This document shows positions 34,844 through 53,064 of a DNA stretch of 64,000 bases, piece by piece; position 1 is the first letter of the stretch, and each line of letters starts with the position of its first letter. The DNA is from Poseidonia sp. (GTDB lineage Archaea; Thermoplasmatota; Poseidoniia; Poseidoniales; Poseidoniaceae). The notes beneath the pieces are model-generated. The model was not told the origin of the DNA. It searched no databases and worked only from the letters and a program-made list of their open reading frames with translations. The DNA is taken from the NCBI GenBank assembly GCA_038148515.1, contig JAYQVP010000001.1:294102-358101 (forward strand). The letters run 5' to 3'. Made by a program: the position numbers and the translations under genes.

Positions 34844-35003
34844 GTCTCGCCCACCCGCCGTGCCTTCTTCAATTATTTGTGGGGACATGAGGGTGGTCGC
34901 GCCAAACAACGCCCTCGGAAGCGTTTCCACCGTCCCAAGAAGCGGGCGATGGAGGTGCAGAGGGTCGTCGCCTTTATGTGCCGAAGGAGTGGCATTCGCC
35001 TCC

Positions 35004-36559: not shown

Positions 36560-37935
36560 AAGGTGGCGATTTCGCTCCACAAAGCGGCATCGACTGTGGC
36601 TCCGTTCTGTTCCGCAACCTCGATGAAACACGACACAAACTCACTCAAAAAATTACGATGATGACCCAATGCCTTGCGCTGTTTGAATTCATTGCTAAGT
36701 GCAGCAAGGATGTTCGCTATTGATCCTACATCGACCTTTTTCCAGCCTTCTTCCTCCGGTTCAAGATATGGTTTTGTCATAGAAAACCAACATTGTAAGC
36801 CCCAGAGAACAGCATAAATGTCCAAATTTGTTTGGCCTGCAACAAGATAATTATTCAAGAAGGAGAGATCAAAGATTTTTTCTTCGATGTTGTGTTTCTC
36901 AAAAAAGGCTCTATCGAAACGAACCAAGTTAAGAGGGGCTTTGTTGGAGCCGATACCATGTATTGGAGGGAACGACAACTGCGATTCGACTTGAGATTTA
37001 TTAACTGGCCGAGGGAGGAACTCGTTCGCCACAGCCTGAATGATTTCCCTGGACGATTGTCCATCCAAGGCCATTGACAAACACAACAATATGTGTTCTT
37101 TCCACACAACAGAATGGGTGTCACCCCAAGGGCCAATGACATAACCAAGATCATCGGTGTGGCCAAACCAATCAGAGAGAGACATTTCCGCAATGTTCGG
37201 CAAGAGAAAAGGCGTATGAAGACGAAGGTGATGCGTATCGTTCCAATTTTGCAACAAAATGTAATCGCAAAGAGGATTCAACGAGTCCTTCGTTACCTTT
37301 GTCACGAGCCCTTGTGATTGAAAGAAAGTTACCCATGCGTCACGGTTTTCCATGAAATTTTCTTTGTTTGAAATCGCCATTGATGGGAAAGCCTTCGTTG
37401 CAAAAACATTGGCGGTAGGATACAGGGTGATGTCGAGTTGTGGATTCATGCCGATGATCGTTGAGGGTACAGTAAGCCCGAGACTGATGGCGAAGGAGGC
37501 AAAACCTCCGCCTGACCCACCAAAAAAGACCAATCTCTTGGAAAAATGAGCCGATAACCGGTCAAGCAGTGCACACAAATCTGCCTGTAAAGAGAACCAC
37601 TTTTCGTTTCCAATATACCACGCTAAATTTACCCCGTCAATGTGAGTCGAGGGGTCGGAGATGGAGATAAGGCAGGATTGCAACGAAGCACCAATGCCTT
37701 CTCCTGAAAAAAAAGGAGGAGACTTGTTGCTTTTACTGCTGATGGCCGCATTCAAACAGATGAGAAGGCTTTGGTGAGAATCTAAAAAGCGAGTGTTGCT
37801 TATTTTCATGTACAATGTATTGGTACCGAAAACAACCTCGTAGACCCCGTCCTCAAGATTGGTTTGAAGCAACTCCTCCGGACTTCCTGAACTGACGATT
37901 GACCCCCAATCGCCCACGTCAATGCGTCCATTCAT
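36532..37935 (-). CDS. hypothetical protein of the glycan locus (contains FFGGSGGGFASF GxSxG-like motif)
   Basis: 467 aa, unique ORF in the low-GC sub-island. No family assignment possible by eye. Confidence 0.45.
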   Translation of the reverse strand: MNGRIDVGDWGSIVSSGSPEELLQTNLEDGVYEVVFGTNTLYMKISNTRFLDSHQSLLICLNAAISSKSNKSPPFFSGEGIGASLQSCLISISDPSTHIDGVNLAWYIGNEKWFSLQADLCALLDRLSAHFSKRLVFFGGSGGGFASFAISLGLTVPSTIIGMNPQLDITLYPTANVFATKAFPSMAISNKENFMENRDAWVTFFQSQGLVTKVTKDSLNPLCDYILLQNWNDTHHLRLHTPFLLPNIAEMSLSDWFGHTDDLGYVIGPWGDTHSVVWKEHILLCLSMALDGQSSREIIQAVANEFLPRPVNKSQVESQLSFPPIHGIGSNKAPLNLVRFDRAFFEKHNIEEKIFDLSFLNNYLVAGQTNLDIYAVLWGLQCWFSMTKPYLEPEEEGWKKVDVGSIANILAALSNEFKQRKALGHHRNFLSEFVSCFIEVAEQNGATVDAALWSEIATFHSILSNSE

Positions 37936-40900
37936 TCCTCCACCCCCAGAGTGCTTCGAAAGGTCTGAGATACCGTCAAAATGTTGTGCTTTTCGAGTCG
38001 AGGTTTGAGTTTTGAGATTCTCTCATTGACCGTTTCAAGTTTCACTCGAAGGTCAACAGTCCATGAATCGTCATCGGGACCTTCGACAAAGAACGGCCAG
38101 TCCGAACCCAACAATTCCTCGTGCAACACGGAGCGGGTCAGGACAGGAGGCGTACCCACAAGGATGCATTCCAACACTTTCGTGGACAGTTCTCGGGTTT
38201 GGCTCTCGAAATATGCATCTCGGGCACACCACGCAAGATCGGCCAAGGCCACGTGCTTGAGCACTTCTTCGCGGGGTAGACGATGGATCCAGTCTACGTG
38301 CTCGTTGGTCTCCAGTTTTGAGATCATGCGTCGACGGAAGGTTGCATCGTCAGCTGGACCGTTGTGAATCTTATCGCCAATGACCTTGACGGCAAGCTCT
38401 GAAGAAGCAACGTCAAGCAATGGTTCAACTCCCCACAAGGGAGCCATTTTTCCAGCATAAACGATGTTTACTTTGTCATCGTGAACACCGCCGCTCAACG
38501 GTTCAGGAGCCTGGTCTGGAATCATCGGTGGAAGTTCCACAAATTGATGGTCAGGCATACCGGAAAGGTGGGCTAATTCCTTCTGAATGAGCGAGGTTTG
38601 ACAGAGGATTTTTCCACCTTGTTCACATATTGCTTGAACGAGTTGGGCGGTCGTTTCCTTGACGGTCGCCGACCCGTCATCATCGTGGCCGTAATAATCG
38701 GTCAAATAGGCCCATACCTCAATCCCATCAAGTTGTGACAAATCTTGGACGAGGTCAAAACCTCGGCTGAATACCTTGGTCTGACCGGGTAGATAGGTCG
38801 CAAGACTGTTCACCATGTTGACATAATCGTCATGAGGAAGTTTGCGCCCGAAGTCTTTGAAGCCCATTTTTGTTGGCGTAATGATGGTAACGTTGTCAAG
38901 CAGCAACAGAGGCTGGATGATGGGTGAGGATTCGGCTTCGCTGGCGATGCTGCAGACCACATGGACGCCGGTTGCGGCCAACATTTCGGCCATTGAGGCA
39001 AACCAGATTGCAGACCCATCAATCAAGTTGAGGTCCATATGAGCGGCTAAAAGAACGATTTCGTCTATGGGTTCACGTATCTGGCGAATCGCCTCGTCGG
39101 CTGCAGCGAACAACTGATTATCGTCGTGAACCAAGGTCTTAATCCACATTCGATTAGCCTCAGAACAAATCTTCGGAAGAAGATTGGAACGATGCATTTC
39201 ATGAACAAATGGAACAGAGGTATCCATGTTTTGCTTTGATTCTGCGATAACATCCCATAATTGGAGCGATATCTTTCGAAGATCGTAATTTTCCATCACA
39301 AATTGACGATTGTTCTCGCCACGTTCGTACAGTTCTCCTTTCCGAACATGAGACACATATTTTTCGGATAGGTCTGAGACAGAATCCCGAATCCAGTCTT
39401 CTTTGTGTATGTCAGAAGCCCCAGTCCATCCGAGCATCAATACATCTGTACGAGCCGCTGCCCCTTCCAAGGGAGCAAGGTGGAACGATTCAAAATCGGA
39501 AACCGATAACATCGCAGATACCGATGAAAAATAGGAAGCGATAGTCTTGGTATAGCCTTCTTGGGTCACGAGGCGGCGCTCAAACATGTTTTGATGCTCT
39601 TCAAACAAGGCAGTGTACCATTCATTATCTGCCGTTCTACGCTTCATCCAAGCAAAATCCTTTGGCAGTTTTCCTTTGAGAATCAATTTGATGGGATTTA
39701 TTTCTTGATTTATACCATTGAGTATAGATAGAGCAAAATCGAATCTCTTTCGCTGAGGAGTGATACCAATCAGTCCAATCGCTGCAGCATCTTGTCGCTC
39801 TACATCCAGCTCTAAACAATCAACTGCATTGGCGACGACAATTTTTTGAACGGGATCAACGATTCTGGGGTCGTCTTCCATTGTGTGGTTTGAAACAAAT
39901 ATCATGTTGTCGTCTTCACGGAGGGCTGCATCCAGTAGATATTCGGTATTACGCTCTTGGAGATGATAACGCATTGAAAGCGAACGTTCACCTCTCAATC
40001 CTGAAATCTTGGTGACATTGCCCAAAGCCCACTCGCAGAACAAGACATCGTGTGTGCTCATGAGGTGCATGAGCTCTTGGTCGTCAATATCCAAAGCCCC
40101 CGAATGTGTTTTCGACTTGAGCAAGGTCACGGCAATACCCCACGAACGCCAAGTGTTCGCAATGGGTGTAATGAACTTCAAGTCGTGGCCCACAATCAAT
40201 ACACGTTGGTTGATGGGGAGAACGGAGAGACGGTCAGCCTCGCTCGGTTCATTGAATTCGCTTACCCCTTCGGTGACCAACGTGTTGAGGCAATGGTCGA
40301 GACCGGTGTGTTCATTCATGCTTGGAGTATAAGCGATGGCGCGATTCGTCAGAGGTGTCGTACTGCGATGCACGATGATGCCGTTCACCAACAAGGCATT
40401 GATGGCAAGCAACCACTCATCGGTTTGCTCAATGGTCGCCGGTAGCGTGACCCATGCCGGTTTAACTCGTTGACACAAGACTTGACTGACAAATTGGCTT
40501 GTGTCGATGGGATCGTCTCCAGAGACATGCAACTCGTATCGCATGGGATCGAGCCTTTGGAGGTGAGAGCGGTCGTAAGCGGATTCTACAAGTCGAACCC
40601 ACGGATGAAGTTTCAAGATTCGACGGCGCCAATTCTCCTTGCGTTGATGGTCGTGGGTTTCTTCTCGCCGAAGGACGGTTTCTACGATGCTGTTGAAATG
40701 TTCGCTTTCAGCCAAAATGCCAACATAGCCCCGAAGATGGGCTGTTCGTTCCGCTAGCAGAATTGACCCGTGCCCTACGGCATGGTGCAGTTCTGATTCC
40801 GTCGTCAAAGCGTCACAGAGGAAGACGGTTGAGGTCGCTTGAGAAAGGTCGTGTTGCTTGGGCACGCCCAGCACACCAACGCATGAATGGTCTTCACGCA

Positions 40901-43310
40901 GAGTGAGTTCGCCATAGGTGGGTACCGTAGACACCCATGGATGGAAGTGAAGTTCCTCGGGTTGAACCGATAATTTCGGTGTCAACTCAATGGCGCCTGA
41001 GGTCAACTGCCAACCGTCGGCAAGGGAAACAGGAGAGTCCAACCAAGAAGGAGCGCCGGTGGGTGCGAATATCTCCAAACGGTTCAACTCCATCGGCATG
41101 CCGGTTAATCGTCCGTTGTTGACGGTAGAGGGTAACACGTCCAATTCCCATTCAAGCAATCCCTCGGACGTGAGGCAGTGAGTGTACACGCTTGCGATGA
41201 CCGAAGCCATTGTGTTCCAAGAACGCCGCTCCTCAACCCATGAACGACCAGCCTCGGACAATTCACGAAGGAGGGAGGGGTTCTCGATCAGCACCCTCAA
41301 CTTTTCAGACAAATCTTGAGCGTTCTCCTTCTCAAACAACAATCCGTTTTTGTTAGCGATCACGTGTTCAGCGATGGCGCGAACGTTGCTGGCCAACACG
41401 ACGGACCCCATGGCCATCGCTTCTAGGGGTTTGAGTGGGGAAATCATCTCGCATACTTCAGCCGATATTCGAGGGAACGGCGCGATGTCGATGAGCGAAT
41501 AATAATCGTTGACTTCGTCCATCGGCACCTTGCCAGTAAACTGGACCATGTGCGAGAGTCCTAATTCTTGAACCTGAAGTTCAAGCGACGCGCGCATCGC
41601 ACCATCGCCGACGATGAGAACCGCCAAGTTGTTCCGAAGCAATTGTGGAAGCATAGCCACCGCCTCCAATAAAAAATTCAATCCTTCATAATGCAGGAGA
41701 GAGCCAACATAACCAACAACCACCTTGCCGTTCAGCATCAATGAACGTTCAAGCAGCTCATTTCTTGGTTGAACCGTGAATTGCTCTGCATCCACACAGT
41801 TCGGGGCGAGGCTGATTTTTTCCTCAGGGATGCCCCAATCGATCAGTTGCGCACGCAAGCCATCAGTAATAGCAATGACATGGTCTGCCGCGTTGGCGAC
41901 ATGACGCTCAAGCGCCATCTCCAATTGAAAACGGTCGCTTTGTCGGTATTCCTCGTCTTTCGCCGCCCTGCTTAACGCCCACAAACCACGCATTTCGTAG
42001 ACGAACGGAATGTTGAGGGCACGAGCCACCATGGCCGCAGGGAATCCCACCGAGTGGTTGGAAGCAGCGTGAATGGTTTGTGGACGTAGTTCCATCGCTG
42101 TACGAAGCAAGGAATATGCAGACCTCACCGCATAATCTTCCATGGCGTATGTCCCGAATGCGTCTTCGGCAGGGTCGTGGAGATAGGTAACGCCATCGAG
42201 CACCGTGTTCACAATGTCTTCGGGTTTGAGTTCGACCTCCTTTCGGTCGCAGGGATAGCCCCATCGAGTTCGTACATGCAAATCAACGCCTTGTTCAAGC
42301 AAAGATTTGCAGATGTGGTGGGTGCGCGTACAGTATCCTGCCGTGGTGTAATCGATGCTGGCGTGAATGTGGTAGAGGACCCTCCCTTGAACGGGCTGAT
42401 AGTTTTTCACCGGTTTGAGTACATTGAGATCGTAACCGTTCAAACGCCAGTTCAACCGTTCTTGAATGGAATTTCGCAGACGTTGACTCGTCTGATCAGT
42501 GGAGGATGAAAGGAGAGAGATGGCTTCTTCAGAACGATGCGTTCGTTCAAGTTCAACGGCTAAACGGCGCTGAAGGCGCGCATCCAATGCCAAATCAGCG
42601 ACGGAGGAGCCAAAATGAAGTGCATGCTCAAGGCTGCACTCAAGAAGGAGGGTTCCCGCTTGGAAAACGATCTCCCTTTTTCGGCGAACATCCATCTTTT
42701 TTGAGGTAAGAAGGTCGGTGACATCGTTGATGAAAGTTGACTGATAGTGGCCTGCGAGATGTCGGGTCAAACGGGGACCGATGCGGTCAATATCGACCGT
42801 TTTCAAATCAAAATCAAGTGATTGATCATCATCAATACTTGGCGTTTTCTGCTGAGGAACAGAAGTTGATTGAGGGGTCATAAAGTCGAAAATTTTGCGT
42901 CGCTTGGCGCGTTTTTTCAACACAAAATCAGGGGCTCCAAGAAGCGTTTCTCCGAATTCTGGCTGCCCGATACGGTTGAAATAGGTATGAAGAGAACGCA
43001 TCGCTCGTTGATCGTCCAACAACTCGGGCATGGCTGCCAGGCATTGAAAAACATACGCTGCATCAACAGTACAATAGGCACGCAGCGTTGCCAATCTGAT
43101 GTCTTTGCCCACGATTTCATCAACTTCATCAGCCAGACGAGCGGAATCAGAGTGCACGTGCAGTGTATGCAAGTCAAGGGTTTGGCGCAATGAAAATTCA
43201 TCCTTCAGGTCTGTAGGCCTGTCCAAACAGTGCAGAGCAATCTGGATGACGGGGTTGTCAATCTCCTTCAGCCGACGAATCCGTCGATTTCTTCGATACC
43301 GTTTGAGCAT
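37932..43310 (-). CDS. giant multi-modular glycosyltransferase (at least three GT-B/GT4-like modules)
   Basis: 1792 aa. Module 1: RVLYHIHASIDYTTAGY...YVGSLLHYEGLNFLLEAV...PLKPLEAMAMGSVVLAS (GT4 E-x7-E). Further GT-B-like modules include RVLIVGHDLKFI... and VHVVCSIASEAE...NIVYAGKMAPLWGVEPLL. Confidence 0.8.
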   Translation of the reverse strand: MLKRYRRNRRIRRLKEIDNPVIQIALHCLDRPTDLKDEFSLRQTLDLHTLHVHSDSARLADEVDEIVGKDIRLATLRAYCTVDAAYVFQCLAAMPELLDDQRAMRSLHTYFNRIGQPEFGETLLGAPDFVLKKRAKRRKIFDFMTPQSTSVPQQKTPSIDDDQSLDFDLKTVDIDRIGPRLTRHLAGHYQSTFINDVTDLLTSKKMDVRRKREIVFQAGTLLLECSLEHALHFGSSVADLALDARLQRRLAVELERTHRSEEAISLLSSSTDQTSQRLRNSIQERLNWRLNGYDLNVLKPVKNYQPVQGRVLYHIHASIDYTTAGYCTRTHHICKSLLEQGVDLHVRTRWGYPCDRKEVELKPEDIVNTVLDGVTYLHDPAEDAFGTYAMEDYAVRSAYSLLRTAMELRPQTIHAASNHSVGFPAAMVARALNIPFVYEMRGLWALSRAAKDEEYRQSDRFQLEMALERHVANAADHVIAITDGLRAQLIDWGIPEEKISLAPNCVDAEQFTVQPRNELLERSLMLNGKVVVGYVGSLLHYEGLNFLLEAVAMLPQLLRNNLAVLIVGDGAMRASLELQVQELGLSHMVQFTGKVPMDEVNDYYSLIDIAPFPRISAEVCEMISPLKPLEAMAMGSVVLASNVRAIAEHVIANKNGLLFEKENAQDLSEKLRVLIENPSLLRELSEAGRSWVEERRSWNTMASVIASVYTHCLTSEGLLEWELDVLPSTVNNGRLTGMPMELNRLEIFAPTGAPSWLDSPVSLADGWQLTSGAIELTPKLSVQPEELHFHPWVSTVPTYGELTLREDHSCVGVLGVPKQHDLSQATSTVFLCDALTTESELHHAVGHGSILLAERTAHLRGYVGILAESEHFNSIVETVLRREETHDHQRKENWRRRILKLHPWVRLVESAYDRSHLQRLDPMRYELHVSGDDPIDTSQFVSQVLCQRVKPAWVTLPATIEQTDEWLLAINALLVNGIIVHRSTTPLTNRAIAYTPSMNEHTGLDHCLNTLVTEGVSEFNEPSEADRLSVLPINQRVLIVGHDLKFITPIANTWRSWGIAVTLLKSKTHSGALDIDDQELMHLMSTHDVLFCEWALGNVTKISGLRGERSLSMRYHLQERNTEYLLDAALREDDNMIFVSNHTMEDDPRIVDPVQKIVVANAVDCLELDVERQDAAAIGLIGITPQRKRFDFALSILNGINQEINPIKLILKGKLPKDFAWMKRRTADNEWYTALFEEHQNMFERRLVTQEGYTKTIASYFSSVSAMLSVSDFESFHLAPLEGAAARTDVLMLGWTGASDIHKEDWIRDSVSDLSEKYVSHVRKGELYERGENNRQFVMENYDLRKISLQLWDVIAESKQNMDTSVPFVHEMHRSNLLPKICSEANRMWIKTLVHDDNQLFAAADEAIRQIREPIDEIVLLAAHMDLNLIDGSAIWFASMAEMLAATGVHVVCSIASEAESSPIIQPLLLLDNVTIITPTKMGFKDFGRKLPHDDYVNMVNSLATYLPGQTKVFSRGFDLVQDLSQLDGIEVWAYLTDYYGHDDDGSATVKETTAQLVQAICEQGGKILCQTSLIQKELAHLSGMPDHQFVELPPMIPDQAPEPLSGGVHDDKVNIVYAGKMAPLWGVEPLLDVASSELAVKVIGDKIHNGPADDATFRRRMISKLETNEHVDWIHRLPREEVLKHVALADLAWCARDAYFESQTRELSTKVLECILVGTPPVLTRSVLHEELLGSDWPFFVEGPDDDSWTVDLRVKLETVNERISKLKPRLEKHNILTVSQTFRSTLGVEE

Positions 43311-43319
43311 CTTTTGACC

Positions 43320-44426
43320 TCACAACAGTTGTTTCAAAGATTCAATACACCGAATCGCCGCTTGTCCATCCCACATATCAATAGAAGGGCGAGTGGTGGA
43401 TTGAGAGGCGAACAAGACTGACTTCGGTCCAATCTCTTCGGGGACAATCAATTGATTCGTTCCTTCGCTGATGGTGATCGGCCGTTCGGTGTTGGGTCGC
43501 ACTGTTAGACATGGTAAACCAAGGTAGGTTGTTTCTTCTTGAATTCCGCCGCTGTCCGTGATGACGCCGTTCGAGGATGCGACCAAACTCATGAACTCAA
43601 CATAGCCAAGGGGTGGGACGCAACGAATGTTCTCATGTTCTATGTAGGCTTCAAGGCCAAACGATTCTATCCGAGCCTTCGTTCGAGGATGCATCGGCCA
43701 AATGAGTGTATAAGTAGTGGCAAGTTCGTTGAGTTGTGCCAAAATGAGAGCGAGAATCGCTTCATCATCGACATTTGATGGTCGGTGCAAAGTAACAACA
43801 AGATGCGAGTGAGATATACCCAATTCTTCCTTCATGTTGCGGGCTCTGAAAAGAGGTTCCATTTCGACAAGAGTGTCGATCATAATGTTGCCCACTCGAA
43901 CAATTTTTCTCGCATCAATGCCTTCTTTCATCAAATTTTCATCGCCATCGGGCGATGGCGTCCACAACAAATCGCATAGATGGTCAGTGACAATTCGATT
44001 CAATTCCTCGGGCATTCCTCGATCGTTACTGCGCAAACCCGCCTCTAGATGCACCGTTGGAATGCCGAGCTTTGTTGCTGCCAGCGAACACGCAACAGTG
44101 CTGTTCACATCGCCAATCACGATGACACAATCTGGTTCACGCTCAAGCAACACGGCTTCGTATCGCTCGAGAATGTTTGCGGTTTGCTTACCATGGCTGG
44201 CGCTTCCGACGTTCAACGATATGTCGGGATGGCCCATGCCAAACTGTTCAAAGAAAATGCCCGCCATTTCGTGGTCATAATGTTGGCCTGTGTCCACGAG
44301 ATAGGGTGTGAATTCGTCGGACGAACGGAGAACACGAAGAAGCGGAGCCGCTTTCATTTGGTTTGGCCGGGCGCCAACAACAACATGAACCTCCTTACTC
44401 ATGATTTGCGCTGTATCAACAGGCAT
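43320..44426 (-). CDS. wecB: UDP-N-acetylglucosamine 2-epimerase (non-hydrolysing type, WecB/MnaA-like)
   Basis: VHVVVGARPNQMKAAPLLRVL, DCVIVIGDVNSTVACSLAA, HLEAGLRS, and GVITDSGGIQEE are all canonical. Confidence 0.85.
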   Translation of the reverse strand: MPVDTAQIMSKEVHVVVGARPNQMKAAPLLRVLRSSDEFTPYLVDTGQHYDHEMAGIFFEQFGMGHPDISLNVGSASHGKQTANILERYEAVLLEREPDCVIVIGDVNSTVACSLAATKLGIPTVHLEAGLRSNDRGMPEELNRIVTDHLCDLLWTPSPDGDENLMKEGIDARKIVRVGNIMIDTLVEMEPLFRARNMKEELGISHSHLVVTLHRPSNVDDEAILALILAQLNELATTYTLIWPMHPRTKARIESFGLEAYIEHENIRCVPPLGYVEFMSLVASSNGVITDSGGIQEETTYLGLPCLTVRPNTERPITISEGTNQLIVPEEIGPKSVLFASQSTTRPSIDMWDGQAAIRCIESLKQLL

Positions 44427-44496
44427 TTCATTTCATCGCCAAAAACCAAGCGAATCGATTCGTATAGACTAAACCCAAAGCCTCCTTGGAAGAGGC

Positions 44497-45780
44497 ATGG
44501 AGGTCCGTATCGAGGTTGAACAATCAAGGATTGTTCTGTCCCTATCTGCTTCGAAAGAAGAGCGAGATTCGGTTTACGGAGAGAAAATGGCTGAAACACT
44601 TGATTTTTCAATCGCCTCCAACGGGCCGATTGATCTTCGAACGGTTCACGATGATCACCTCGCTCTCATCGTTCTGTTAGCGGTTCATCCTTTTGCCATC
44701 GGAAAACTACCCATACCTCTTCATGTCTCCAAACAGTTTGAGGAAGCAACCCAAATTTTTTCTCGGTATCGTCCTGAGTTTCTGTCCACTTCAGGAAGAC
44801 CGTACACCTCAAAATCTGATGGAAAACCAGGTCTAGCATTTTCAGGAGGCATGGACTCCACAGCGGCCCTTCTACTGATGCCAAACAACACCGTTCCGGT
44901 CTTTCTTGACCGACCTCATCGAGCAAACACGACGCTTTACAATAAATCCGCAGCCAAAGCCACAATGGCGTTTCTCGAAGCAAAGGGAATTCCAAATATC
45001 GCCATCAGCACTGATGTAGAGTTCATTCGAAACCCTGTAGGATTCCCGACTGATTTAGCAACGGGCATTCCAGTCCTTGCGTTGGCATCTCATTTCCAAT
45101 TTGATTCAATCGGGTTTGGAACGGTCATGGAATCGGCATATCGAATCGGGCATGAAAAATCTCGGAATTACGTTGAATCGCCCCACTACAAGGTTTGGGC
45201 GCCGTTGTTTTCTGCCGCAGGATTGCCTCTGTTTTTGCCCGTTGCAGGCGTCAGCGAAGTCGGAACGAGCACCATCGTCCATCGATCGCCCTTTCGGGGG
45301 ATGGCGCGATCGTGCATTCGCGGAAATTGGCCTCAAACATGCAACAACTGTTGGAAATGTTTCAGAAAACAATTGATTGAACATGGCATCAATCAAACAG
45401 AATTTAACGACAACCAATTCCTCTCATCGCTTCAATCAAAAGAAGTCGTTAGCAAACTCTCTGCGGAATTCATCTCTCACGAAAATGTGTTGGGTTGGGC
45501 ATTGAATAAAATTCAACGTGGTCCGAAACTCGATGTGTTGTTCAACCGATTGGTTGCTTCAACCTACTCGTTGAATCATCTTGATTCGTTTTACCCACCG
45601 GCGATTGACCTCGTCCCACCAAAATATCGTTTGCATGTCCTCGAACAACTGAGGAGTTACCTTCCAGAAATGCAAGAGGCGGACCAAGAACGAATGATTG
45701 AACAAGATTTCGCAGACCTACTCAAGTCAGAGCAACACCAAGAAAAAGTGCGGGCGTTGATGGCCATGCTCAACGTTTAA
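44497..45780 (+). CDS. PP-loop ATPase with C-terminal Cys cluster (QueC-like / sugar amidotransferase-like), low-GC copy
   Basis: LAFSGGMDSTAALLLMP (SGGxDS PP-loop) and CIRGNWPQTCNNCWKCFRK. Paralogous to the gene at 47158-48525. Confidence 0.6.
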   Translation: MEVRIEVEQSRIVLSLSASKEERDSVYGEKMAETLDFSIASNGPIDLRTVHDDHLALIVLLAVHPFAIGKLPIPLHVSKQFEEATQIFSRYRPEFLSTSGRPYTSKSDGKPGLAFSGGMDSTAALLLMPNNTVPVFLDRPHRANTTLYNKSAAKATMAFLEAKGIPNIAISTDVEFIRNPVGFPTDLATGIPVLALASHFQFDSIGFGTVMESAYRIGHEKSRNYVESPHYKVWAPLFSAAGLPLFLPVAGVSEVGTSTIVHRSPFRGMARSCIRGNWPQTCNNCWKCFRKQLIEHGINQTEFNDNQFLSSLQSKEVVSKLSAEFISHENVLGWALNKIQRGPKLDVLFNRLVASTYSLNHLDSFYPPAIDLVPPKYRLHVLEQLRSYLPEMQEADQERMIEQDFADLLKSEQHQEKVRALMAMLNV

Positions 45781-47089
45781 GCAGGCGCTCAACAACCGAA
45801 ATAGCTCCGTTGGCTTGAGCGTCGTTCATCGGTGCATGTGGCAGGTTGAGCAACTTCTCGATTCCTTTGCCAAGTGTCGCTTCTTCCGGCTTCATGACAA
45901 CCAACCCCCACCCCTCTTCTTCGGCCTGCTTGCATCGCTTCACCTGGTCGTCCATGCCCGTGTCGGTGTTGGGGATGAACAGGGTCGGCACACCAAAGGT
46001 GCGCATTTCCTGATACGAGTTGTAGCCCCCGGCTTGAACCGCTGCATCAAAGCCCTTGATGTAGAGGGAATTGGGGTAATCACGAATCACCCGCAGGCGC
46101 TCGTGGTGCACGTCAAGACGCTCGCCCAGCATCGATTCGCCGAGCACCACGTGAACGTGTTCGTGAGCGAACAGCGCATCGAGGACGCGGTTGAGCACGC
46201 CTTCAATGTCGTTGATGCGTCCTGCGCCCAGTTGAACGTAGACCACCTTGGCGTCCTCGGGCACGGCCAATCGGGAACGGGCGTAGGCTCGGTCCCACAC
46301 CTCCTCGGGATCCATGACGCGAATGGGCGGCACGACGTGTTCGCGTTCGGTCTCCTCGCCCGAAGCTTCGCCGGGAACGATGAAGCCGTCAAAGAAGTCG
46401 AAACTGTCCACTGGCACGGAGGTGTTGGTTTTCATCGAACCTCGCCGCATCCACCACTTTTCCATGCCCCGCTGGGAAGCGATAGCGTTGAGCATGCCTC
46501 GGTACGGATAGGCGCCGTCAAACATGAACCACTTGGGCCGGTGCTGGTCGAAGACCAAGTGAAGCATGTCCTCCACCAGTCCGTTCCACTGCGTCGCTGA
46601 CATGTTAGCGTGTTTGTAGCGGCCCGCCAGATGGTACGTGGGGAATTGGTCGCTGTAGAGCACGTGGAGTGTCGGCATTGGGGTGAAGAAGACGATTTCG
46701 AGGCTTGGGTCCGCTTTGCGCAAGGCGCGAGCGACGGCGTACATGCGGGTGAAGTGACCAAAGCCCACGCCGTTGGTTGGGAAGAGAACGATGCAGTGGT
46801 TTCGGTCCGTTTCGTCGGAGGAGTGGATACCGTCGGTTAACGCCACGGGGCGCTTGCCCAAGCGCTGGAGACCAAGACGGAACGCGTGGAGGGGGAAGGT
46901 GAGGGGCAGAAAGGGCAGGCGCCACGGTTGACGAACGGCGTTGGTAAGGTGAAGACCCAACTGAAACGACACGCTGTTGCGAAGACGACGGATTTCACGT
47001 TCGTTGCGAGCGTTTCTCACGCGGAGTCGCTCGTTGGCCGAACCTACAGGGTCATTGAGGTCGCCGTCGTGGTGCGCCCCATCATCCAT
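45770..47089 (-). CDS. MurG/PseG-like GT-B (GT28 family) glycosyltransferase or UDP-sugar hydrolase
   Basis: IVLFPTNGVGFGHFTRMYAVARAL (GxGHxxR N-terminal motif of the MurG/PseG/SpsG family). C-terminal GAGRIND...AVQAGGYNSYQEMRTFGVPTLFIPN. Start at the internal Met MDDG to avoid overlap with the upstream gene. Confidence 0.55.
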   Translation of the reverse strand: MDDGAHHDGDLNDPVGSANERLRVRNARNEREIRRLRNSVSFQLGLHLTNAVRQPWRLPFLPLTFPLHAFRLGLQRLGKRPVALTDGIHSSDETDRNHCIVLFPTNGVGFGHFTRMYAVARALRKADPSLEIVFFTPMPTLHVLYSDQFPTYHLAGRYKHANMSATQWNGLVEDMLHLVFDQHRPKWFMFDGAYPYRGMLNAIASQRGMEKWWMRRGSMKTNTSVPVDSFDFFDGFIVPGEASGEETEREHVVPPIRVMDPEEVWDRAYARSRLAVPEDAKVVYVQLGAGRINDIEGVLNRVLDALFAHEHVHVVLGESMLGERLDVHHERLRVIRDYPNSLYIKGFDAAVQAGGYNSYQEMRTFGVPTLFIPNTDTGMDDQVKRCKQAEEEGWGLVVMKPEEATLGKGIEKLLNLPHAPMNDAQANGAISVVERLLKR

Positions 47090-47157
47090 GCTCTGGCCTT
47101 GGAGGCGGACTTCTTCATGCTTCCTCGTCGTGCTCGCTCTCGGTCGGGATTTGCTGG

Positions 47158-48525
47158 TCAAGGCGAGGTGTCGATGTGAACCGATTCCAAGGGATAGGGT
47201 TCGGTCATGCGCGACAGGACGGCATCGCTTCGCTGCTCCACCGTCGCTCGCCACGGCTCGTCGATGAGGTCGAGCCCGGGCGGATAGATGTCCACCCACC
47301 ACGAAAGGTCCGATTCCAAAAACGGCGCAAGGTGCGGGGCCAAGTGCTCGAGCCGCTGAACTTGCAGGGCCCACAGGGCGTGTTGGGCGGTGCGCAACGG
47401 CTTGGTGTTGAGAAAGGTCGTGATTTCGGGGGCGTTGGGGTCAAACTCACGCCCCAGCGGGCCGTTCTTGTGGAAGCATTTCCAGCACCGACCGCACCAG
47501 CGTTCACCTACCCCTCGCAAACACGAATTGACCACATCGCCCAGTTCGCTCTGTCTGCACACCTCAAGGGCGCCTGCCTCGGAAAGGTGGTTGATCGGCA
47601 GCACGTAGGCCAGTCCTGCCTTGGCGAACATGGCTCGTGATTTCGCCCAGTAGGGGTCGGTTGCGAAATCTCGGAACACCGAACCTCGCTTCAACCAGGT
47701 ATTGTCAATGGGGGTTCCGTAGGCGATGCCGGCGAGGTTGAGATGGTCCGCCAAAAGGACGAGGTGAACGCCGGCGGCGTGCGCGTCCGAAAACCCGTTG
47801 ACCTTGCCGTGGTAGGTTCGAATGCGTTCGTGATTGGAAGGGATGCACAGCACCTCTCGCCCCGTGCGCTGCTTGATGGCCTCGAAGGTCGCCAACGGCA
47901 AGGTGTGGCTGAGCATGGAGTCGAAATTGCGCTGATGGTAGGCGAGGACGGTGTCGTCGGGAAGCAGGAGCAGAGCCGCCGTGGAATCCACGCCCCCCGA
48001 ATAAGCCAAGGCCAACCGCTCACCGGGTTCACGCGCATCGACCGACCACTGCTTGGCGGCGGGAACCCATTGGCCGATGAGCAACTGCATGGCCAGATGA
48101 AGCAGCGACGGGTGGGTCTTGGCAAGCGAATAATCCTCGGGCATGTCCCAGTGCGTCCAACCCCACGGATGGCGCATCCACACACGCCTCCCTTCTTGCA
48201 ACCAGTTCGAGAGAAGGTCGTCGCCGTTCCACGGACGGTCCTCGTCCGGAGTTGGCTCGCCCTGTTCGGCCTGCGTCACCTGCGCCAGTTTGAGTCGTGC
48301 TCGTCGCTCGTAGGTCCCGTCGTCGGCTTCGGGGTGTTCGCTGATGAAGGCGAGAACCTCTTGCCACGCTTGCTGGTTGTAGAGGGAACGCAGCACGATG
48401 TCCCTAGCAAAGGCTCGGTTGCCCGTCGTCAGTTCGCGCGCGGCAAGGTCCGCTGCCCGTTGGTACTCGCCTGCGTTGTAGGCTTTGCGAATGGGCCAAC
48501 GACGCCACGCCTTCCACATCGCCAA
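47158..48525 (-). CDS. PP-loop ATPase with C-terminal Cys cluster, high-GC paralog of 44497-45780
   Basis: LALAYSGGVDSTAALLLLP and CLRGVGERWCGRCWKCFHK. The overall architecture is shared with the low-GC copy. Confidence 0.6.
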   Translation of the reverse strand: MAMWKAWRRWPIRKAYNAGEYQRAADLAARELTTGNRAFARDIVLRSLYNQQAWQEVLAFISEHPEADDGTYERRARLKLAQVTQAEQGEPTPDEDRPWNGDDLLSNWLQEGRRVWMRHPWGWTHWDMPEDYSLAKTHPSLLHLAMQLLIGQWVPAAKQWSVDAREPGERLALAYSGGVDSTAALLLLPDDTVLAYHQRNFDSMLSHTLPLATFEAIKQRTGREVLCIPSNHERIRTYHGKVNGFSDAHAAGVHLVLLADHLNLAGIAYGTPIDNTWLKRGSVFRDFATDPYWAKSRAMFAKAGLAYVLPINHLSEAGALEVCRQSELGDVVNSCLRGVGERWCGRCWKCFHKNGPLGREFDPNAPEITTFLNTKPLRTAQHALWALQVQRLEHLAPHLAPFLESDLSWWVDIYPPGLDLIDEPWRATVEQRSDAVLSRMTEPYPLESVHIDTSP

Positions 48526-48619
48526 CGCCTCTGCCGTTGCCGAACCGTTCCTCGCTTTTCGTTATCACCCTCCGATGTGGGCTACAAAGGCTAAGGCGTG
48601 GGTGCCCCGTCAACAAACC

Positions 48620-49582
48620 ATGGCGAGCGTCCTCATCACCGGTGGAGGGGGCTACATCGGCCAGGCCTGCGCTCGTGCCTTCCGCGATGAGGGGTGGCAG
48701 GTTCGCGTGCTCGACCGACGTTCCTCCGACGAATGCGAAGGCATGGATGCCTTGCTCGCCCAAGGCTGCACGTTCCACCATGCCGACATTCTTGACGAGG
48801 TTGCGATGGCGGAGGCCATGGCGAACTGCGATGCCGTCCTCCATTTGGCAGCGGTATCCTCGGTGCCCGATTCCATCAGCGACCCAACGACCACCATGCG
48901 CGTCAACGTGGACGGAACGGAGACGGTGCTCAGGGTCGCCGCCCGACTTGGTGTGCCACGCGTCGTGGCGGCGTCAAGCGCTGCCGTGTACGGGTCAAAC
49001 CCCAACATGCCGCTTGAAGAGACGGCCACCTTGCAACCGCTTTCACCGTACGCTGAGAGCAAGCGGTTGAACGAGCAAGCGGTGAACGCCTACCGAGATT
49101 CGGGGATGGACGCCATTGCGGTGCGATTTTTCAACGTCTACGGGGGAGACCAGGTCCGATTTGCCAACAATCGGTCGGTGGTACCCTCCTTCCTTCGCAC
49201 GATGATCGCCGGCGAAGCACCGTGCATGTTCGGTGACGGTTCGCAAACGCGGGACTTCATTCACGTGGACGACCTTGCCCGGGCACTGATGGTGTTGATG
49301 GGTTTGGAGGGACCTTTTCAGCATGCGACGGTCAACCTCTGCACCCAGCGTGAGCATTCCATGTTGGACGTGATGAACGGCATCAACGAAGCGTTGGTGA
49401 AACGGGGCGTGCTCGACAAAGCTCTGGTTCCCACCCATCAACCTCCAAGAGAAGGTGACATCCACCGCTCATACGGCTCAAATCGGCGGCTCGTCGAAAC
49501 GACAGGTTGGGCACCTCAGCATGATTTTGTGAGCGGGCTTGACGATACGGTGGGCCGGTTCCTTGGAGGAGCGAGGGAATGA
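48620..49582 (+). CDS. NAD-dependent epimerase/dehydratase (UDP-sugar 4-epimerase-like SDR)
   Basis: MASVLITGGGGYIGQAC (GxxGxxG) and YAESK (YxxxK). Confidence 0.85.
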   Translation: MASVLITGGGGYIGQACARAFRDEGWQVRVLDRRSSDECEGMDALLAQGCTFHHADILDEVAMAEAMANCDAVLHLAAVSSVPDSISDPTTTMRVNVDGTETVLRVAARLGVPRVVAASSAAVYGSNPNMPLEETATLQPLSPYAESKRLNEQAVNAYRDSGMDAIAVRFFNVYGGDQVRFANNRSVVPSFLRTMIAGEAPCMFGDGSQTRDFIHVDDLARALMVLMGLEGPFQHATVNLCTQREHSMLDVMNGINEALVKRGVLDKALVPTHQPPREGDIHRSYGSNRRLVETTGWAPQHDFVSGLDDTVGRFLGGARE

Positions 49583-50691
49583 AGGTCGCTTGGTTCACCG
49601 TCCGAAAATGGGCCGATTTTTGCGCCACCACCACCGATGCGCTTGCGCATGGGATGGTCGCCAACGGTCACGAGTTGACGGTGTTCAACCCGGATGCGTC
49701 GGAAGCGCACCGCGACGCTCCGTGGAGCCACGTTTCGCTTGACCAGAGCGAGCGACGAGGTTTTCGAGCCCGCAGCGTGGCTAAATCGGGGGCTCGCTGG
49801 CTCTCCAACGCGGCGAACACCGTCGATGTTGACGTCGTTCTCGTCGACTGGCAGTTGCTTCCTACGCTCATGCCCACGTTGACGCACCTGAACCGTCCGG
49901 TGGTGCTGGTTGACCGTTCGCCCCCCGCCGATGCAGGTTTGCTTGGAAGGCTGCAGTGGAGGGTCTGGAAGCGAGCGTGGCAGTGCCTACGTTACGGACG
50001 CGTTCAGGCGGGGACCGTGGTGTCGCAAGCCCACGCAGCCTTCGTGACGCAACGGGCCGGTGTGCGAGCGAGCGACATGCATTCGCTGCCCGCCGGCGTG
50101 GACGTCAACGCCTTCCAACCGCACGCCATCCCAAGCACACCTCTGCGAACGGTGTACCACGGCCGGCTTGACAAGAACCGAGGCGTGCTCGCTTTGCCGA
50201 TGCTCGTTCATTTGCTCCGACAGGACGGCGTGGACGCTGAACTCACGCTGATCGGTGACGGCGATGCGTTGCCTGCGCTCAAGCAGATGGAAGCCGAACG
50301 GCCGTGGATGAACCTCGTGCCCACCCTCACTCACGAGGACTTGCCGGCTGAACTCACCCAACACCACGTCGGCTTCTTGCCGATGCCGGCGACGACGGTG
50401 TGGCAACTGGCCAGCCCGCTCAAGCGGAGCGAATACCTTGCTGCAGGCCTTCTGGTTCTCGGCATCGACCACGACGGTCACCGTCTTGAAGGTGTGAGCG
50501 AGGCATGGTACCGGCTTCTTGCGCAAGAGGACTTTCTGGGCGACGGTGTGGCGTGGTTGAAACAACTCGACGAACACCGCCTTGCGGATGGCCGGGCGGC
50601 AGCCAGAACGTTCGCTGAATCCTCTTGCTCGTGGAACACCAGCGTTGAGGTTCTAGAAAACCTGCTTCAGTCCTTCAACCACGACGCGTAG
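49579..50691 (+). CDS. GT4-family glycosyltransferase
   Basis: MKVAWFTVRKW... N-domain. C-terminal GFLPMPATTVWQLASPLKRSEYLAAGLLVLG (E-x7-E region). 4-nt overlap with the epimerase. Confidence 0.7.
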   Translation: MKVAWFTVRKWADFCATTTDALAHGMVANGHELTVFNPDASEAHRDAPWSHVSLDQSERRGFRARSVAKSGARWLSNAANTVDVDVVLVDWQLLPTLMPTLTHLNRPVVLVDRSPPADAGLLGRLQWRVWKRAWQCLRYGRVQAGTVVSQAHAAFVTQRAGVRASDMHSLPAGVDVNAFQPHAIPSTPLRTVYHGRLDKNRGVLALPMLVHLLRQDGVDAELTLIGDGDALPALKQMEAERPWMNLVPTLTHEDLPAELTQHHVGFLPMPATTVWQLASPLKRSEYLAAGLLVLGIDHDGHRLEGVSEAWYRLLAQEDFLGDGVAWLKQLDEHRLADGRAAARTFAESSCSWNTSVEVLENLLQSFNHDA

Positions 50692-51647
50692 AGCGCCCCC
50701 CACCGCTGCGCAACAGCGGCGACCCGGTGGTCATCGAGGTTGACCTGTGGTTGTGGGGAGCCGTCCATCACCCCTTGCACGGCCTGAACCCAATCTTGCA
50801 CGTTCGGCCCGGCGCGAACCGTGCCTTCGGGCAGGGAATGAAGCCGCTGCGGTGCGATCACGGGAAGGCCGCACGCCAACGCTTCGAGCACGACCAAAGG
50901 TTGGCCTTCAACGCTGGAAGGCAGGAGCAACACGGTTGCTGTTTGAAGAAGTTCGAGTTTTTTCTCCTCGCTGACCCACCCCAGCGGTTGAACAAAATGC
51001 AGCGATGAGTGTTCCCGCCCGGTCATGCTCAAACGGACATCGGGGTGGTTTTCCACGAGACGAGCGACCACCTCTTCGGCAAACCCGTGCCCTTTGACCG
51101 GGTCGTCTCGACCGAGAACAAGCACATGGTTGGTGTCGCGGGCGCGTTCACCGGGAGCATACTTCGGCCCCACCGGATTCACAACCGCTTCAACCGGCCC
51201 AAGCACTGGAGCGAGTAACCGCTTCCACTCCTCGCTCAACACTGCTTGGTGCAATCCGAGTTTAGCCACACTTGAACGGTGTTGTTTCGCTCGTTTTCCG
51301 TCCGCAGGACCCATCCATGCCGCCAGTCGGCCCGAATGGTGGTGAAGCACGGCCGGCACCTCAAAGCGGCGCACGGTCCTCAACAGGCGAAGCTTCCGGC
51401 GGAGGGACCAGTCCGAGGCCACGTGAACGTGAACGATATCGGGCCGCTGGTCGGCTGAGGCACATCGCCGCTTCAGTTCCGCCCTTGCCCGCCTGTAGGC
51501 TCGCCATTTCGTCCACGGGCTTCCCGGGGCATGCGAGGCGAGCAGGTCGGCCTGCCAGCCATCGGGAGGGTGTTCAGCCAGCGTCCGCATCACGGTTGCC
51601 ATGCCCCCAGGCGTGTCGCACGGCCCCACATGCAACACCCTTCGCAT
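50667..51647 (-). CDS. GT4-family glycosyltransferase
   Basis: MRRVLHVGPCDTPGGMATV... and VLLLPSSVEGQPLVVLEALACGLPVIA (E-x7-E). Confidence 0.7.
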   Translation of the reverse strand: MRRVLHVGPCDTPGGMATVMRTLAEHPPDGWQADLLASHAPGSPWTKWRAYRRARAELKRRCASADQRPDIVHVHVASDWSLRRKLRLLRTVRRFEVPAVLHHHSGRLAAWMGPADGKRAKQHRSSVAKLGLHQAVLSEEWKRLLAPVLGPVEAVVNPVGPKYAPGERARDTNHVLVLGRDDPVKGHGFAEEVVARLVENHPDVRLSMTGREHSSLHFVQPLGWVSEEKKLELLQTATVLLLPSSVEGQPLVVLEALACGLPVIAPQRLHSLPEGTVRAGPNVQDWVQAVQGVMDGSPQPQVNLDDHRVAAVAQRWGALYASWLKD

Positions 51648-51708
51648 GGTTGGACGGAGGGCTTCGGGATGAAGAAAGCACGGGCGAAAGCGGCTTGGAG
51701 GACCGAGC

Positions 51709-52977
51709 ATGAACAGGAGGGCTCAAGGATGGAAGGGAACACGTACCTGCATGGTCGTTGTGCCAGCGATGATCGAAGGTGCGGCTTTGGGAGTGGCCCT
51801 GCTGCCCTTCGTCGTTCATCGCTGGGACATGTATCGCTGGGACCGCGACCATCGTCAGGACCACCGCCCCAAAGCCGTGAACCACCAGGAAGCACTGACG
51901 GTCGTGCTGCCCTTGTGGAACGAATCCGCTATCATCACCCAGAAATTGGACAACCTCGCACAGCAAGACATGGCGTGTACGCTGCTCGTCATCGATTCCG
52001 CCTCCACCGACGACACCATTGCCAAGGTGGAAGGGTGGTTGAAGGCGAATCCCACGGCCTTCGCTGCCTCGCAGGTCATCGTCATGCCAGAACGAAAGGG
52101 AAAATCCGCCGCCGTGATTCAGGCGCTCACCCACATTGGCCAACACGCCGAAGGGCTGGTGTGCATGACGGACGCTGACGCCTTGCTGGAGACGGGTGTG
52201 CTTCGGCGCATGATGCAGTGGTTCGCCGACCCGATGGTCGGTGCTGTGGGCGCTCTTCCTCGACGGATAGGCGCACGGCCCGAGGAGCAGGAACACCGGG
52301 CGTCCTGGGAGGCCATGCGACTGGCTGAATCCATGGTGGATAGCACCCCGTTTCTCGAGGGTTCATGCATGATGTGGCGGCCTTCGAGCATGGCTATTGA
52401 CGATCTCGTGGAGCACGCCAACGCCGACGACGCCCAAATCGCCACCTCGGTGCGCTGCAAGGGATGGCGCGTCGTGGTCGACCCCCAAGCACGGTTCGTG
52501 GATGCTGCACCGGCATCGGCCATTGAACAGCGACGCCAAAAAATTCGCAGGGCTCAAGGACTCCAGCGTTTGCTCGTGCGGCAACGTCGCGTGGCAACGC
52601 AGCGCCATCAGGGGATCTTTGCTCGCATCTTTCGCCGACAACACCACTTCCATGTCGTCGCTCCCTTGGCCCTGACCGTGGCGGTTGCTTCTGCTGTGCT
52701 GCGGTGGGCGTTCATTCTGCTGTACGGTTGGCCAGCGACCTTCACATTGGCCAACAGTTTGCATCTGGGCTTCACCGTGGCCGAATTGGTGACGGTTGCC
52801 TTGTGGTGGCGAGGCAGACGTGGATTGAGCAACGGACCGTTCAGCGTCTTGGGCCATTGGCTGGCCAGCATGGAATTGCTGGGTCGAGCCTTGGTGACCA
52901 CCGCCCGTGGCCGTTCGCTCCATGTTTGGGAGCAACACGCCGACGTTCGAGAACGGCTCAAGGATGTCAAAGTTTGA
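51709..52977 (+). CDS. GT2-family glycosyltransferase with N- and C-terminal TM helices (synthase-like)
   Basis: LTVVLPLWNESAII..., LLVIDSASTDDT, and MTDADA (DxD). C-terminal hydrophobic helices. Confidence 0.7.
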   Translation: MNRRAQGWKGTRTCMVVVPAMIEGAALGVALLPFVVHRWDMYRWDRDHRQDHRPKAVNHQEALTVVLPLWNESAIITQKLDNLAQQDMACTLLVIDSASTDDTIAKVEGWLKANPTAFAASQVIVMPERKGKSAAVIQALTHIGQHAEGLVCMTDADALLETGVLRRMMQWFADPMVGAVGALPRRIGARPEEQEHRASWEAMRLAESMVDSTPFLEGSCMMWRPSSMAIDDLVEHANADDAQIATSVRCKGWRVVVDPQARFVDAAPASAIEQRRQKIRRAQGLQRLLVRQRRVATQRHQGIFARIFRRQHHFHVVAPLALTVAVASAVLRWAFILLYGWPATFTLANSLHLGFTVAELVTVALWWRGRRGLSNGPFSVLGHWLASMELLGRALVTTARGRSLHVWEQHADVRERLKDVKV

Positions 52978-53064
52978 GAAAAAGGCCCCGCCGTCAGCCT
53001 TGGCTGACGGAGGGGCGTTGTACAGGTCAGAGACCTGGAATCGGCTGAGGCCGTGTGATCGAAA

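Follow-up and report, generated by a model that had tools for sequence, protein, structure and literature searches.

DUF6395 PP-loop proteins paired with a GT-B glycosyltransferase in marine group II archaea: a candidate sugar-acid amidation module of surface glycan synthesis

The Poseidoniales (marine group II, MGII) are among the most abundant planktonic archaea and are still uncultured. We analyzed a 64,000-nucleotide stretch of the genome of Poseidonia sp. (assembly GCA_038148515.1, contig JAYQVP010000001.1, positions 294,102 to 358,101), referred to here as the window, in which two divergent paralogous genes of the family DUF6395, termed A and B, lie on either side of a gene for a glycosyltransferase (GT) of predicted GT-B fold. 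The original prediction for this DNA described A and B as paralogous PP-loop proteins with a QueC-like cysteine cluster, enclosing a GT28-type gene and accompanied by a UDP-GlcNAc 2-epimerase (WecB) and a short-chain dehydrogenase/reductase (SDR) epimerase, an arrangement that is borne out at the locus. The central features, in window coordinates and with protein lengths in amino acids (aa), are the following:

44497-45780, plus strand: DUF6395 paralog A, a QueC-like PP-loop ATP pyrophosphatase as predicted from sequence and model; 427 aa; PF19932 E-value 2.4e-43
44842-44859, plus strand: PP-loop SGGMDS of A (S116-S121), between strand 110-115 and helix 119-127 in the AlphaFold2 (AF2) model
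45313-45369, plus strand: Cys4 cluster of A, CIRGNWPQTCNNCWKCFRK, C273-x8-C282-x2-C285-W-K-C288-F-R-K291
47158-48525, minus strand: DUF6395 paralog B; 453-455 aa; PF19932 E-value 6.2e-19
47983-48000, minus strand: PP-loop SGGVDS of B, from the translated sequence
47467-47523, minus strand: Cys4 cluster of B, CLRGVGERWCGRCWKCFHK, C335-x8-C344-x2-C347-W-K-C350-F-H-K353
45770-47089, minus strand: GT-B glycosyltransferase of GT1/GT28 type, about 439 aa, from weak Glyco_tran_28_C/PseG/MurG matches and Foldseek
46754-46774, minus strand: NGVGFGH motif of the GT-B gene, from the sequence

Both proteins belong to Pfam family PF19932 (DUF6395), which A matches at 148.6 bits and B at 69.1 bits against a gathering cutoff of 25 bits; the model spans only the C-terminal half of the proteins, and it matches 46/46 of the diverse family members on which all conservation and weak-match counts below are based (Pfam scan at E <= 10). 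An exhaustive profile search recovered 859 cluster representatives at E <= 1e-3, and a literature search returned no mention of DUF6395. The two paralogs, whose identity the original prediction had left to be quantified, are 29% identical over 289 aa (BLASTP, E 2e-29), and each carries SGGxDS followed by C-x8-C-x2-C-x2-C, within the longer common motif C-x8-C-x2-C-W-K-C-F-x-K. The clustered four are the only cysteines of protein A. Protein B has the catalytic core of A plus a longer helical N-terminal extension with a W-x-RHPWGW-x-HWDMP motif, and in the alignment the motifs lining the Rossmann domain differ by type (GTVMESAYR in A-type versus GTPIDNTWL in B-type proteins).

The AF2 model of A (pLDDT 91, pTM 0.90) comprises an N-terminal alpha/beta domain (residues 1-100), a PP-loop Rossmann domain (residues 105-270), a Cys4 knuckle (residues 273-291), and a helical C-terminal domain (residues 292-427). 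Within the PP-loop S116 and G118 never vary, and D120 and S121 are kept in 90% or more of the members; conservation extends to the basic residues R139, R178, K287, and K291, as in catalytic members, and the four cysteines are kept throughout DUF6395 with one outlier excepted. Foldseek comparison of A with the PDB returned PP-loop enzymes only, and these weakly (best E 1e-2), namely NcsA as the top match, TilS, carbapenam synthetase, LarE, MnmA, GMPS, and ArgG. When the PDB was searched by sequence, protein A had no match and the family profile gave only noise. Because SGGxDS is near-invariant at a strand-loop-helix junction and the structural matches in the PDB are all PP-loop proteins, A and B are assigned, from sequence and model, to the PP-loop ATP-pyrophosphatase superfamily; turnover of ATP into AMP plus PPi is only predicted.

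Judged by cysteine spacing, weak hidden Markov model (HMM) matches, and structural matches, the nearest relative of DUF6395 is QueC. In DUF6395 and QueC alike SGGxDS is followed some 160-180 residues on by [ST]-C-x2-G...C-x2-C-x2-C, and the E. coli QueC cluster, C188-x8-C197-x2-C200-x2-C203, has a spacing identical to that of the A and B clusters. When DUF6395 was compared by hhalign with one QueC sequence, that of E. coli, the alignment was confined to the 26 columns of the Cys cluster (probability 31%) and paired C273/282/285/288 of A with C188/197/200/203 of QueC, which is suggestive and no proof; C335/344/347/350 of B fall in line with the same four. Weak matches to Pfam QueC occur in 25/46 members (best E 0.002), as against one member at most for each other PP-loop family; among NCBIfam models, QueC weakly matches 6 members, LarE 5, ArgG 3, and WbuX 1, none of them significantly. 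In a Foldseek search of BFVD the five best matches and two lower ones were phage QueC models (E 2e-4 to 1e-3, probability 1.00, target TM up to 0.63). With all four cysteines conserved, a QueC-like structural zinc site is favored over an Fe-S site with three cysteines, and the knuckle probably binds zinc. DUF6395 proteins depart from QueC in having an additional domain at the N-terminus (~100-170 aa) and a helical one of ~135 aa at the C-terminus, and their neighbors are glycosyltransferases and UDP-sugar enzymes, with no queuosine or archaeosine context: no 7-deazaguanine genes (folE, queD, queE, tgt/dpdA) were found among the annotated neighbors at 20-54 kb of the window or in loci L001-L004, L042, L045, L046, and L049.

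The gene between A and B encodes a protein with three long N-terminal helices (AF2 pLDDT 77) and with top Foldseek matches to YojK, CalG1, SpnG, and MurG (E about 1e-12); its GT-B fold is thus confirmed at the level of the model. The protein resembles MurG, PseG, and macrolide-type GT1 enzymes in this fold, in an N-terminal G-x-G-H loop, and in a C-terminal nucleotide-binding motif. It differs from them in its N-terminal helices, in forming a conserved family of its own, and in scoring below all family cutoffs (18.6 bits against 22 for Glyco_tran_28_C, 17.1 against 153 for PseG, and 15.7 against 250 for murG); its bacterial orthologs exceed the Glyco_tran_28_C cutoff. Homologs within the Poseidoniales are 54-89% identical, making the protein better conserved than A or B. 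Further genes of the window that enter into the argument are the following:

43320-44426, minus strand: WecB, non-hydrolysing UDP-GlcNAc 2-epimerase, divergent from A; TIGR00236 E-value 9e-83, above cutoff
48485-49582, plus strand: SDR nucleotide-sugar epimerase/dehydratase-family protein, GalE/TviC-like (sub-equivalog cutoff), divergent from B
33536-35005, minus strand: UDP-N-acetylhexosamine (UDP-HexNAc) 6-dehydrogenase of the WecC/TviB-like clade, with Pfam UDPG_MGDP_dh N, central, and C domains
34824-36559, plus strand: ABC-2 permease and ATPase, Wzm/Wzt-type glycan exporter; the pair is also present in L001, L042, and L045
37932-43310, minus strand: 1792-aa multidomain glycosyltransferase with GT4 at residues 325-700, in a low-GC cassette with WecB and A

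Some mechanical open reading frame starts are overlong, at 48485-48620 and at 47090-47374: the SDR gene probably starts at about 48620 (MASVLITGGGG) and the GT-B gene at 47089 (MDDG...). Protein B measures 455 aa from a TTG start and its homologs measure 453-454 aa, which suggests the ATG at 48519 as its probable start.

Scanning 185,579 species genomes yielded 79 DUF6395 loci, in which adjacency (within 300 nt) was scored by local BLAST for 65 A-type and 43 B-type genes. A homolog of the GT-B gene lies within this distance of 48 of the 65 A-type and 26 of the 43 B-type genes, the gap being mostly <100 nt or the genes overlapping. The partners of A-type genes are WecB (adjacent in 19) or an SDR (in 15), and that of B-type genes is an SDR (in 25, with WecB adjacent in 0). 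The order WecB(-)/A(+)/GT-B(-)/B(-)/SDR(+)/GT4/GT4/GT2/pilin/MetAP recurs in loci whose A protein is 86% or only 43% identical to that of the window. Some proteins of 627-1205 aa, moreover, join DUF6395 with GT2 domains in one chain. These associations uphold the earlier proposal of a glycan-biosynthesis module, and with regard to copy number, which the original prediction had left to related genomes, the A/GT-B/B pair is syntenic across the Poseidoniales and bacteria have a single A-like copy. In some Poseidoniales a second DUF6395 gene beyond the free-standing B-type gene is a 900-1200-aa GT2 fusion with DUF6395 at its C-terminus (L065 1746-4484; L068 6669-10304; L081 10781-14407; P0294, P0297, P0299). 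The DUF6395 domain of these fusions is more B-like than A-like by BLAST, and a second, divergent GT-B gene adjoins each fusion or sits within ~0.5 kb of it.

The pairing of DUF6395 with GT-B also holds in bacteria, in isolates of Oceanirhabdus, Halobacillus, Cohnella, Alkalithermobacter, and Paenibacillus and in metagenome-assembled genomes (MAGs) of Planctomycetota. In Halobacillus and Oceanirhabdus the GT-B protein has an N-terminal S-adenosylmethionine-dependent methyltransferase and a long intervening region before the GT domain, with a weak coiled-coil-type Pfam match (TPR_MLP1_2), and the loci also contain an ABC-2 exporter, GT4s, and a Bac_transf initiating enzyme. A UDP-HexNAc 6-dehydrogenase lies within 6.4 kb of DUF6395 in 13/18 bacterial loci and within 1.3 kb in 9, directly adjoining it in 4 and standing one gene off in 5. 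The Alkalithermobacter locus is a bare dehydrogenase–GT-B–DUF6395 operon in unrelated surroundings; on the Priestia megaterium plasmid NZ_CP109861 the order is dehydrogenase, GT, a 2.2-kb stretch without intact genes, and DUF6395, and in Paenibacillaceae it is dehydrogenase, CE4 deacetylase, DUF6395, and GT-B. The five dehydrogenases tested match UDP-ManNAc or UDP-GlcNAc dehydrogenase models best and not UDP-glucose dehydrogenase, which places them in the WecC/TviB clade; for the dehydrogenase of the window the NCBIfam UDP-ManNAc dehydrogenase and TviB models outscore UDP-glucose dehydrogenase.

Short-form DUF6395 proteins (~350-390 aa, closer to B-type) are encoded alongside capsid, portal, terminase, and SSB genes on virus-like contigs (L088 8001-9083; L090 8001-9080; L093 1830-2885; L112 8001-9056; and IMG/VR loci L094-L111). 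Their neighbors include GT1, GT2 or GT10, a 672-aa methyltransferase-GT fusion, DUF2334, and WecB or SDR genes. The IMG/VR contigs that bear DUF6395 number 18 (12-297 kb), and one of them, L104, has two copies in tandem. A wider bacterial spread suggested by MAG labels was rejected. Seven contigs, labeled Flavobacteriales (L007), Pseudomonadota (L022), a delta-proteobacterial single-cell assembly (L023), Opitutia (L030, L072, L075), and Verrucomicrobiales (L079), are probably mis-binned archaeal contigs: the A-type genes of L007, L022, L023, and L030 share 39-93% identity with A of the window, which is the MGII range, with the MGII-type A/GT-B arrangement in L022, L023, and L030, and L072, L075, and L079 carry B-type genes that score like MGII B-type loci. 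The B identity of the suspect contigs to B of the window (36-46%) is likewise in the MGII range. The bacterial distribution given here rests on the genomes of isolates and on MAG contexts that are distinct (L041-L069).

From sequence and gene context, DUF6395 is an uncharacterized branch of the PP-loop ATP pyrophosphatases, apparently derived from QueC and devoted to glycan synthesis. The substrate of QueC itself is a carboxylic acid, which QueC adenylates and amidates, and the likely shared chemistry is an ATP-dependent conversion of a carboxylate with ammonia. Since a carboxylate is the only group introduced by the genes of the minimal operons, and QueC adenylates and amidates a carboxylic acid, the parsimonious reading by analogy is that DUF6395 carries out ATP-dependent, QueC-style amidation of the carboxylate of an N-acetylhexosaminuronic acid (HexNAcA), to which we give a probability of about 0.5. 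Observed here are the family, the motifs, the fold, and the association and fusion of genes, and from these we infer the substrate, nucleophile, metal, and order of steps as follows. UDP-GlcNAc would be epimerised to UDP-ManNAc or to a 4-epimer, and the dehydrogenase would oxidize the product to UDP-HexNAcA, the source of the uronic acid carboxylate; with WecB and the dehydrogenase at 33536-35005 both in the window, UDP-ManNAcA is predicted here. DUF6395 would then use ATP to adenylate the C6 carboxylate, giving an acyl-AMP and PPi, and ammonia (possibly an amine or amino acid) would displace AMP to form the uronamide, a reaction that would correspond to the first half-reaction of QueC, from carboxylate to amide. 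The GT-B enzyme would transfer the residue, either before or after amidation, to a surface glycan assembled by the large glycosyltransferases and exported via the ABC-2 transporter. If this holds, A, B, the GT-B protein, WecB with the SDR, and the UDP-HexNAc 6-dehydrogenase 9.5 kb off would together be a conserved unit for the synthesis and installation of a modified N-acetylhexosaminuronic acid. The two paralogs, A with WecB and B with the SDR, probably act on two different HexNAcA epimers, or form a heterodimer.

Several observations weigh against amidation of a uronic acid. Every similarity to QueC falls below family thresholds, and QueC is not among the top 50 PDB Foldseek matches of A. 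No glutaminase partner was found for DUF6395. In many archaeal loci no dehydrogenase adjoins DUF6395, and none occurs in the viral contexts seen; acetamidino chemistry on an N-acetyl group or sulfur insertion would share the same fold. In favor of amidation, uronamides are known glycan components, made by unrelated AsnB-like enzymes such as WbpS and WbqG (PMC7468200, PMC2615507), and for this group (WbpS, WbqG, PGN_1234, WbmC/I/Z) the net reaction, HexNAcA to HexNAcAN, is the same as that proposed here (PMC7468200, PMC2615507). The AsnB-like enzymes likewise adenylate a carboxylate in an ATP-pyrophosphatase domain and occur in O-antigen-type clusters. DUF6395 differs in having neither an Ntn glutaminase domain nor an Asn_synthase match (the Pfam scan gave none for A or B, and 1/46 members matches at E 0.33), and none of the annotated contexts of DUF6395 loci showed an AsnB-like gene; the two groups would be analogous, not orthologous.

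The original prediction likened A and B to WbuX/PseA-type enzymes that amidate or amidinylate nucleotide sugars and raised the possibility of HisH/HisF-like partners; its description was accurate and its interpretation right in kind, so that a sugar-modifying, amidotransferase-like role is retained as the best reading of the pair, but this analogy was wrong. In such an acetamidino-forming N-acetyl sugar amidotransferase (NASAT; WbuX/PseA/WbpG/AglX-like), the N-acetyl carbonyl would be adenylated and attacked by ammonia to give an amidine, and the superfamily, the ATP chemistry, and the glycan context are indeed shared, as is the N-acetylation of all associated sugars. NASAT enzymes (WbuX, PseA, WbpG, LfnA, AglX; TIGR03573; PDB 8WEX) also combine a PP-loop with a Zn-Cys4 site and are presumed users of ATP and ammonia in glycan pathways (PMC10607449), yet the family is defined by a CXXCXn[GN]XCXXC tetracysteine motif (PMC10607449), which is absent from A since A holds only its four clustered cysteines; in DUF6395 the arrangement is instead C-x8-C-x2-C-x2-C, placed after the Rossmann domain. 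With TIGR03573, A and B give no match at E <= 1 and 1/46 members matches at E 0.079. Tblastn with E. coli HisH, HisF, and HisA (E <= 0.01) found no partner of the WbuY/WbuZ or AglY/AglZ type in the 64-kb window or in 85 loci. An N-acetyl target would also leave the tight link to the dehydrogenase unexplained, which points instead to the C6 carboxylate, and we consider the acetamidino route unlikely. A variant of uronic acid amidation, in which the uronic acyl-adenylate is captured by an amino acid or amine and A and B attach different substituents, draws on the same evidence and on the different pocket-lining motifs GTVMESAYR and GTPIDNTWL. Methanococcus glycans carry ManNAcA6Thr, and WecB with the dehydrogenase would yield UDP-ManNAcA as in methanogens. 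Here, however, no amino-acid-handling gene is consistently associated and QueC uses ammonia, and we hold this ligase activity to be about as doubtful as amidine formation. Improbable, and somewhat more so, is a role as an adenylyl-transferase or a GT-B scaffold, with an AMP-linked donor or the regulation or termination of chain growth in place of an amide. The strict and often overlapping GT-B adjacency and the fusion to polymerase-like GT2 arrays would fit such a role, and the bacterial GT-B proteins with their methyltransferase and TPR_MLP1_2-like region have an architecture reminiscent of the chain terminators of ABC-transporter pathways. Against it stand the PP-loop and R139, R178, K287, and K291, conserved as in catalytic members, and the minimal operons that lack an ABC transporter; we know of no precedent for AMP-linked glycosyl donors from this fold.

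Full QueC-type chemistry, with two ATP-dependent steps from HexNAcA through the uronamide to a C6 nitrile, or with the steps split between the paralogs, appears quite improbable; if true, the surface glycans of abundant marine archaea and those of some phage-modified hosts would bear a cyano-sugar or some other carboxyl-derived group without precedent. We give still less credence to a sulfur-inserting enzyme of the LarE/NcsA/TtuA type, which would form a thiocarboxylate or thio-sugar and hold an Fe-S cluster on its cysteines. LarE acts on carboxylates, the [4Fe-4S] enzyme NcsA is the top PDB Foldseek match of A with LarE also listed, and the Rossmann/PP-loop fold is common to LarE, NcsA, TtuA, MnmA, and DUF6395. 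The structural matches, however, lie at E ~1e-2, and TIGR00268 (LarE) gives weak matches to 5/46 members and reaches B at E 0.2 (10.9 bits against a cutoff of 150). Sulfur-transferring clusters have three cysteines and one Fe left free, whereas DUF6395 conserves four, spaced as in the QueC zinc site, in a glycan context in which no sulfur-carrier genes were seen among the annotated neighbors. A genuine QueC or other nucleobase-, tRNA-, or DNA-modifying PP-loop enzyme (7-deazaguanine synthesis, QatC-like defence) is the explanation we find hardest to credit, for all the QueC-like Cys motif and fold and a viral homolog that adjoins radical SAM and ParB-methyltransferase genes. In the window proteins the Pfam QueC model scores 11.5 bits (cutoff 22; E 0.21) over the PP-loop only, and the best E of TIGR00364 (QueC) among the members is 0.04. 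All told, the WbuX, QueC, LarE, AsnB, and tRNA-modifying models find in A and B just 17-18-residue PP-loop stubs (E ~0.2), and the tRNA-modifying families match one member each (ATP_bind_3 1/46, E 0.16; TilS_N 1/46, E 0.18), with only a remote likeness of fold. No RNA-binding Pfam domain (THUMP, PUA, TilS C-terminal) was found in DUF6395 proteins, and the neighbors in archaea, bacteria, and viruses are glycosyltransferase and sugar-nucleotide genes. A QatC-like defence role was dropped, as the PADLOC defence library gave no significant match. The HMM comparisons proposed with the original prediction (WbuX, QueC, LarE, AsnB) thus leave A and B below cutoff or unmatched in every case, and the pair are not genuine QueC or tRNA enzymes.

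The module is also the site of a sharp break in base composition. Three genes have a lower GC content at third codon positions (GC3), namely A (0.46), WecB (0.50), and the 1792-aa GT (0.53), than the GT-B gene (0.73) and B (0.76), so that the contrast between A and B noted in the original prediction stands. The left cassette (35000-45780: ABC transporter, 467-aa protein, 1792-aa GT, WecB, A) spans GC3 values of 0.46-0.63 and shares 68-86% identity with the lower-GC loci L001, L005, and L006, whose A genes have GC3 of 0.42-0.48, the 467-aa protein excepted (47-49%). The right-hand genes (45770-53000) have GC3 of ~0.7 and are 43-76% identical to the same loci, with B (57-61%) and the SDR (43-44%) far more diverged, and the mosaic boundary falls within ~10 nt of the 11-nt convergent overlap of A and GT-B. 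The low-GC cassette on the A side looks, from these comparisons, like a replacement allele from a lower-GC relative, introduced by homologous replacement of the left half of the cluster. The further claim that a second copy had been acquired by transfer fails, since WecB/A/GT-B/B/SDR is kept across the Poseidoniales down to 43% identity and A and B are equal in GC3 in other genomes; with this equality and the order-wide synteny, B is not a native gene joined by a newcomer A.

The module is a conserved core on the margin of a glycosylation island that is hypervariable and laterally exchanged. Because the DUF6395–GT pair recurs in cultured Bacillota, Planctomycetota metagenome assemblies, a Priestia plasmid, and viral contigs, its activity can be tested in tractable organisms. 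Were uronic acid amidation true, DUF6395 would gain a function as the third independent family of enzymes to give sugar acids a nitrogen-containing modification, one that alters surface charge, and the QueC scaffold would have been recruited from nucleobase to glycan chemistry.

Several other genes of the window deserve mention; it contains no tRNA and no Rfam match. In the 1792-aa GT, more than 1000 residues flanking the GT4 domain match no Pfam or PDB sequence, and in L003 and L004 its counterpart is swapped for quite different GT sets. The 467-aa protein (36532-37935), between the ABC transporter and this GT, likewise has no Pfam or PDB match and is conserved at 47-49% in L001 and L006 and at ~29% in L004, L014, and L018. 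A PALP-family pyridoxal phosphate enzyme (threonine/cysteine synthase-like) at 32179-33420 adjoins the UDP-HexNAc dehydrogenase and could be either a housekeeping enzyme or a supplier of an amino-acid nucleophile. A second and sharper low-GC island (20113-23943; GC ~0.40 versus 0.60) contains genes for an SDR epimerase/dehydratase, a radical SAM protein, a GT2, and a Gb3_synth/DXD-type glycosyltransferase, and immediately past it, at 24101-25732, lies a gene for a 543-aa STAND/AAA_16 NTPase.

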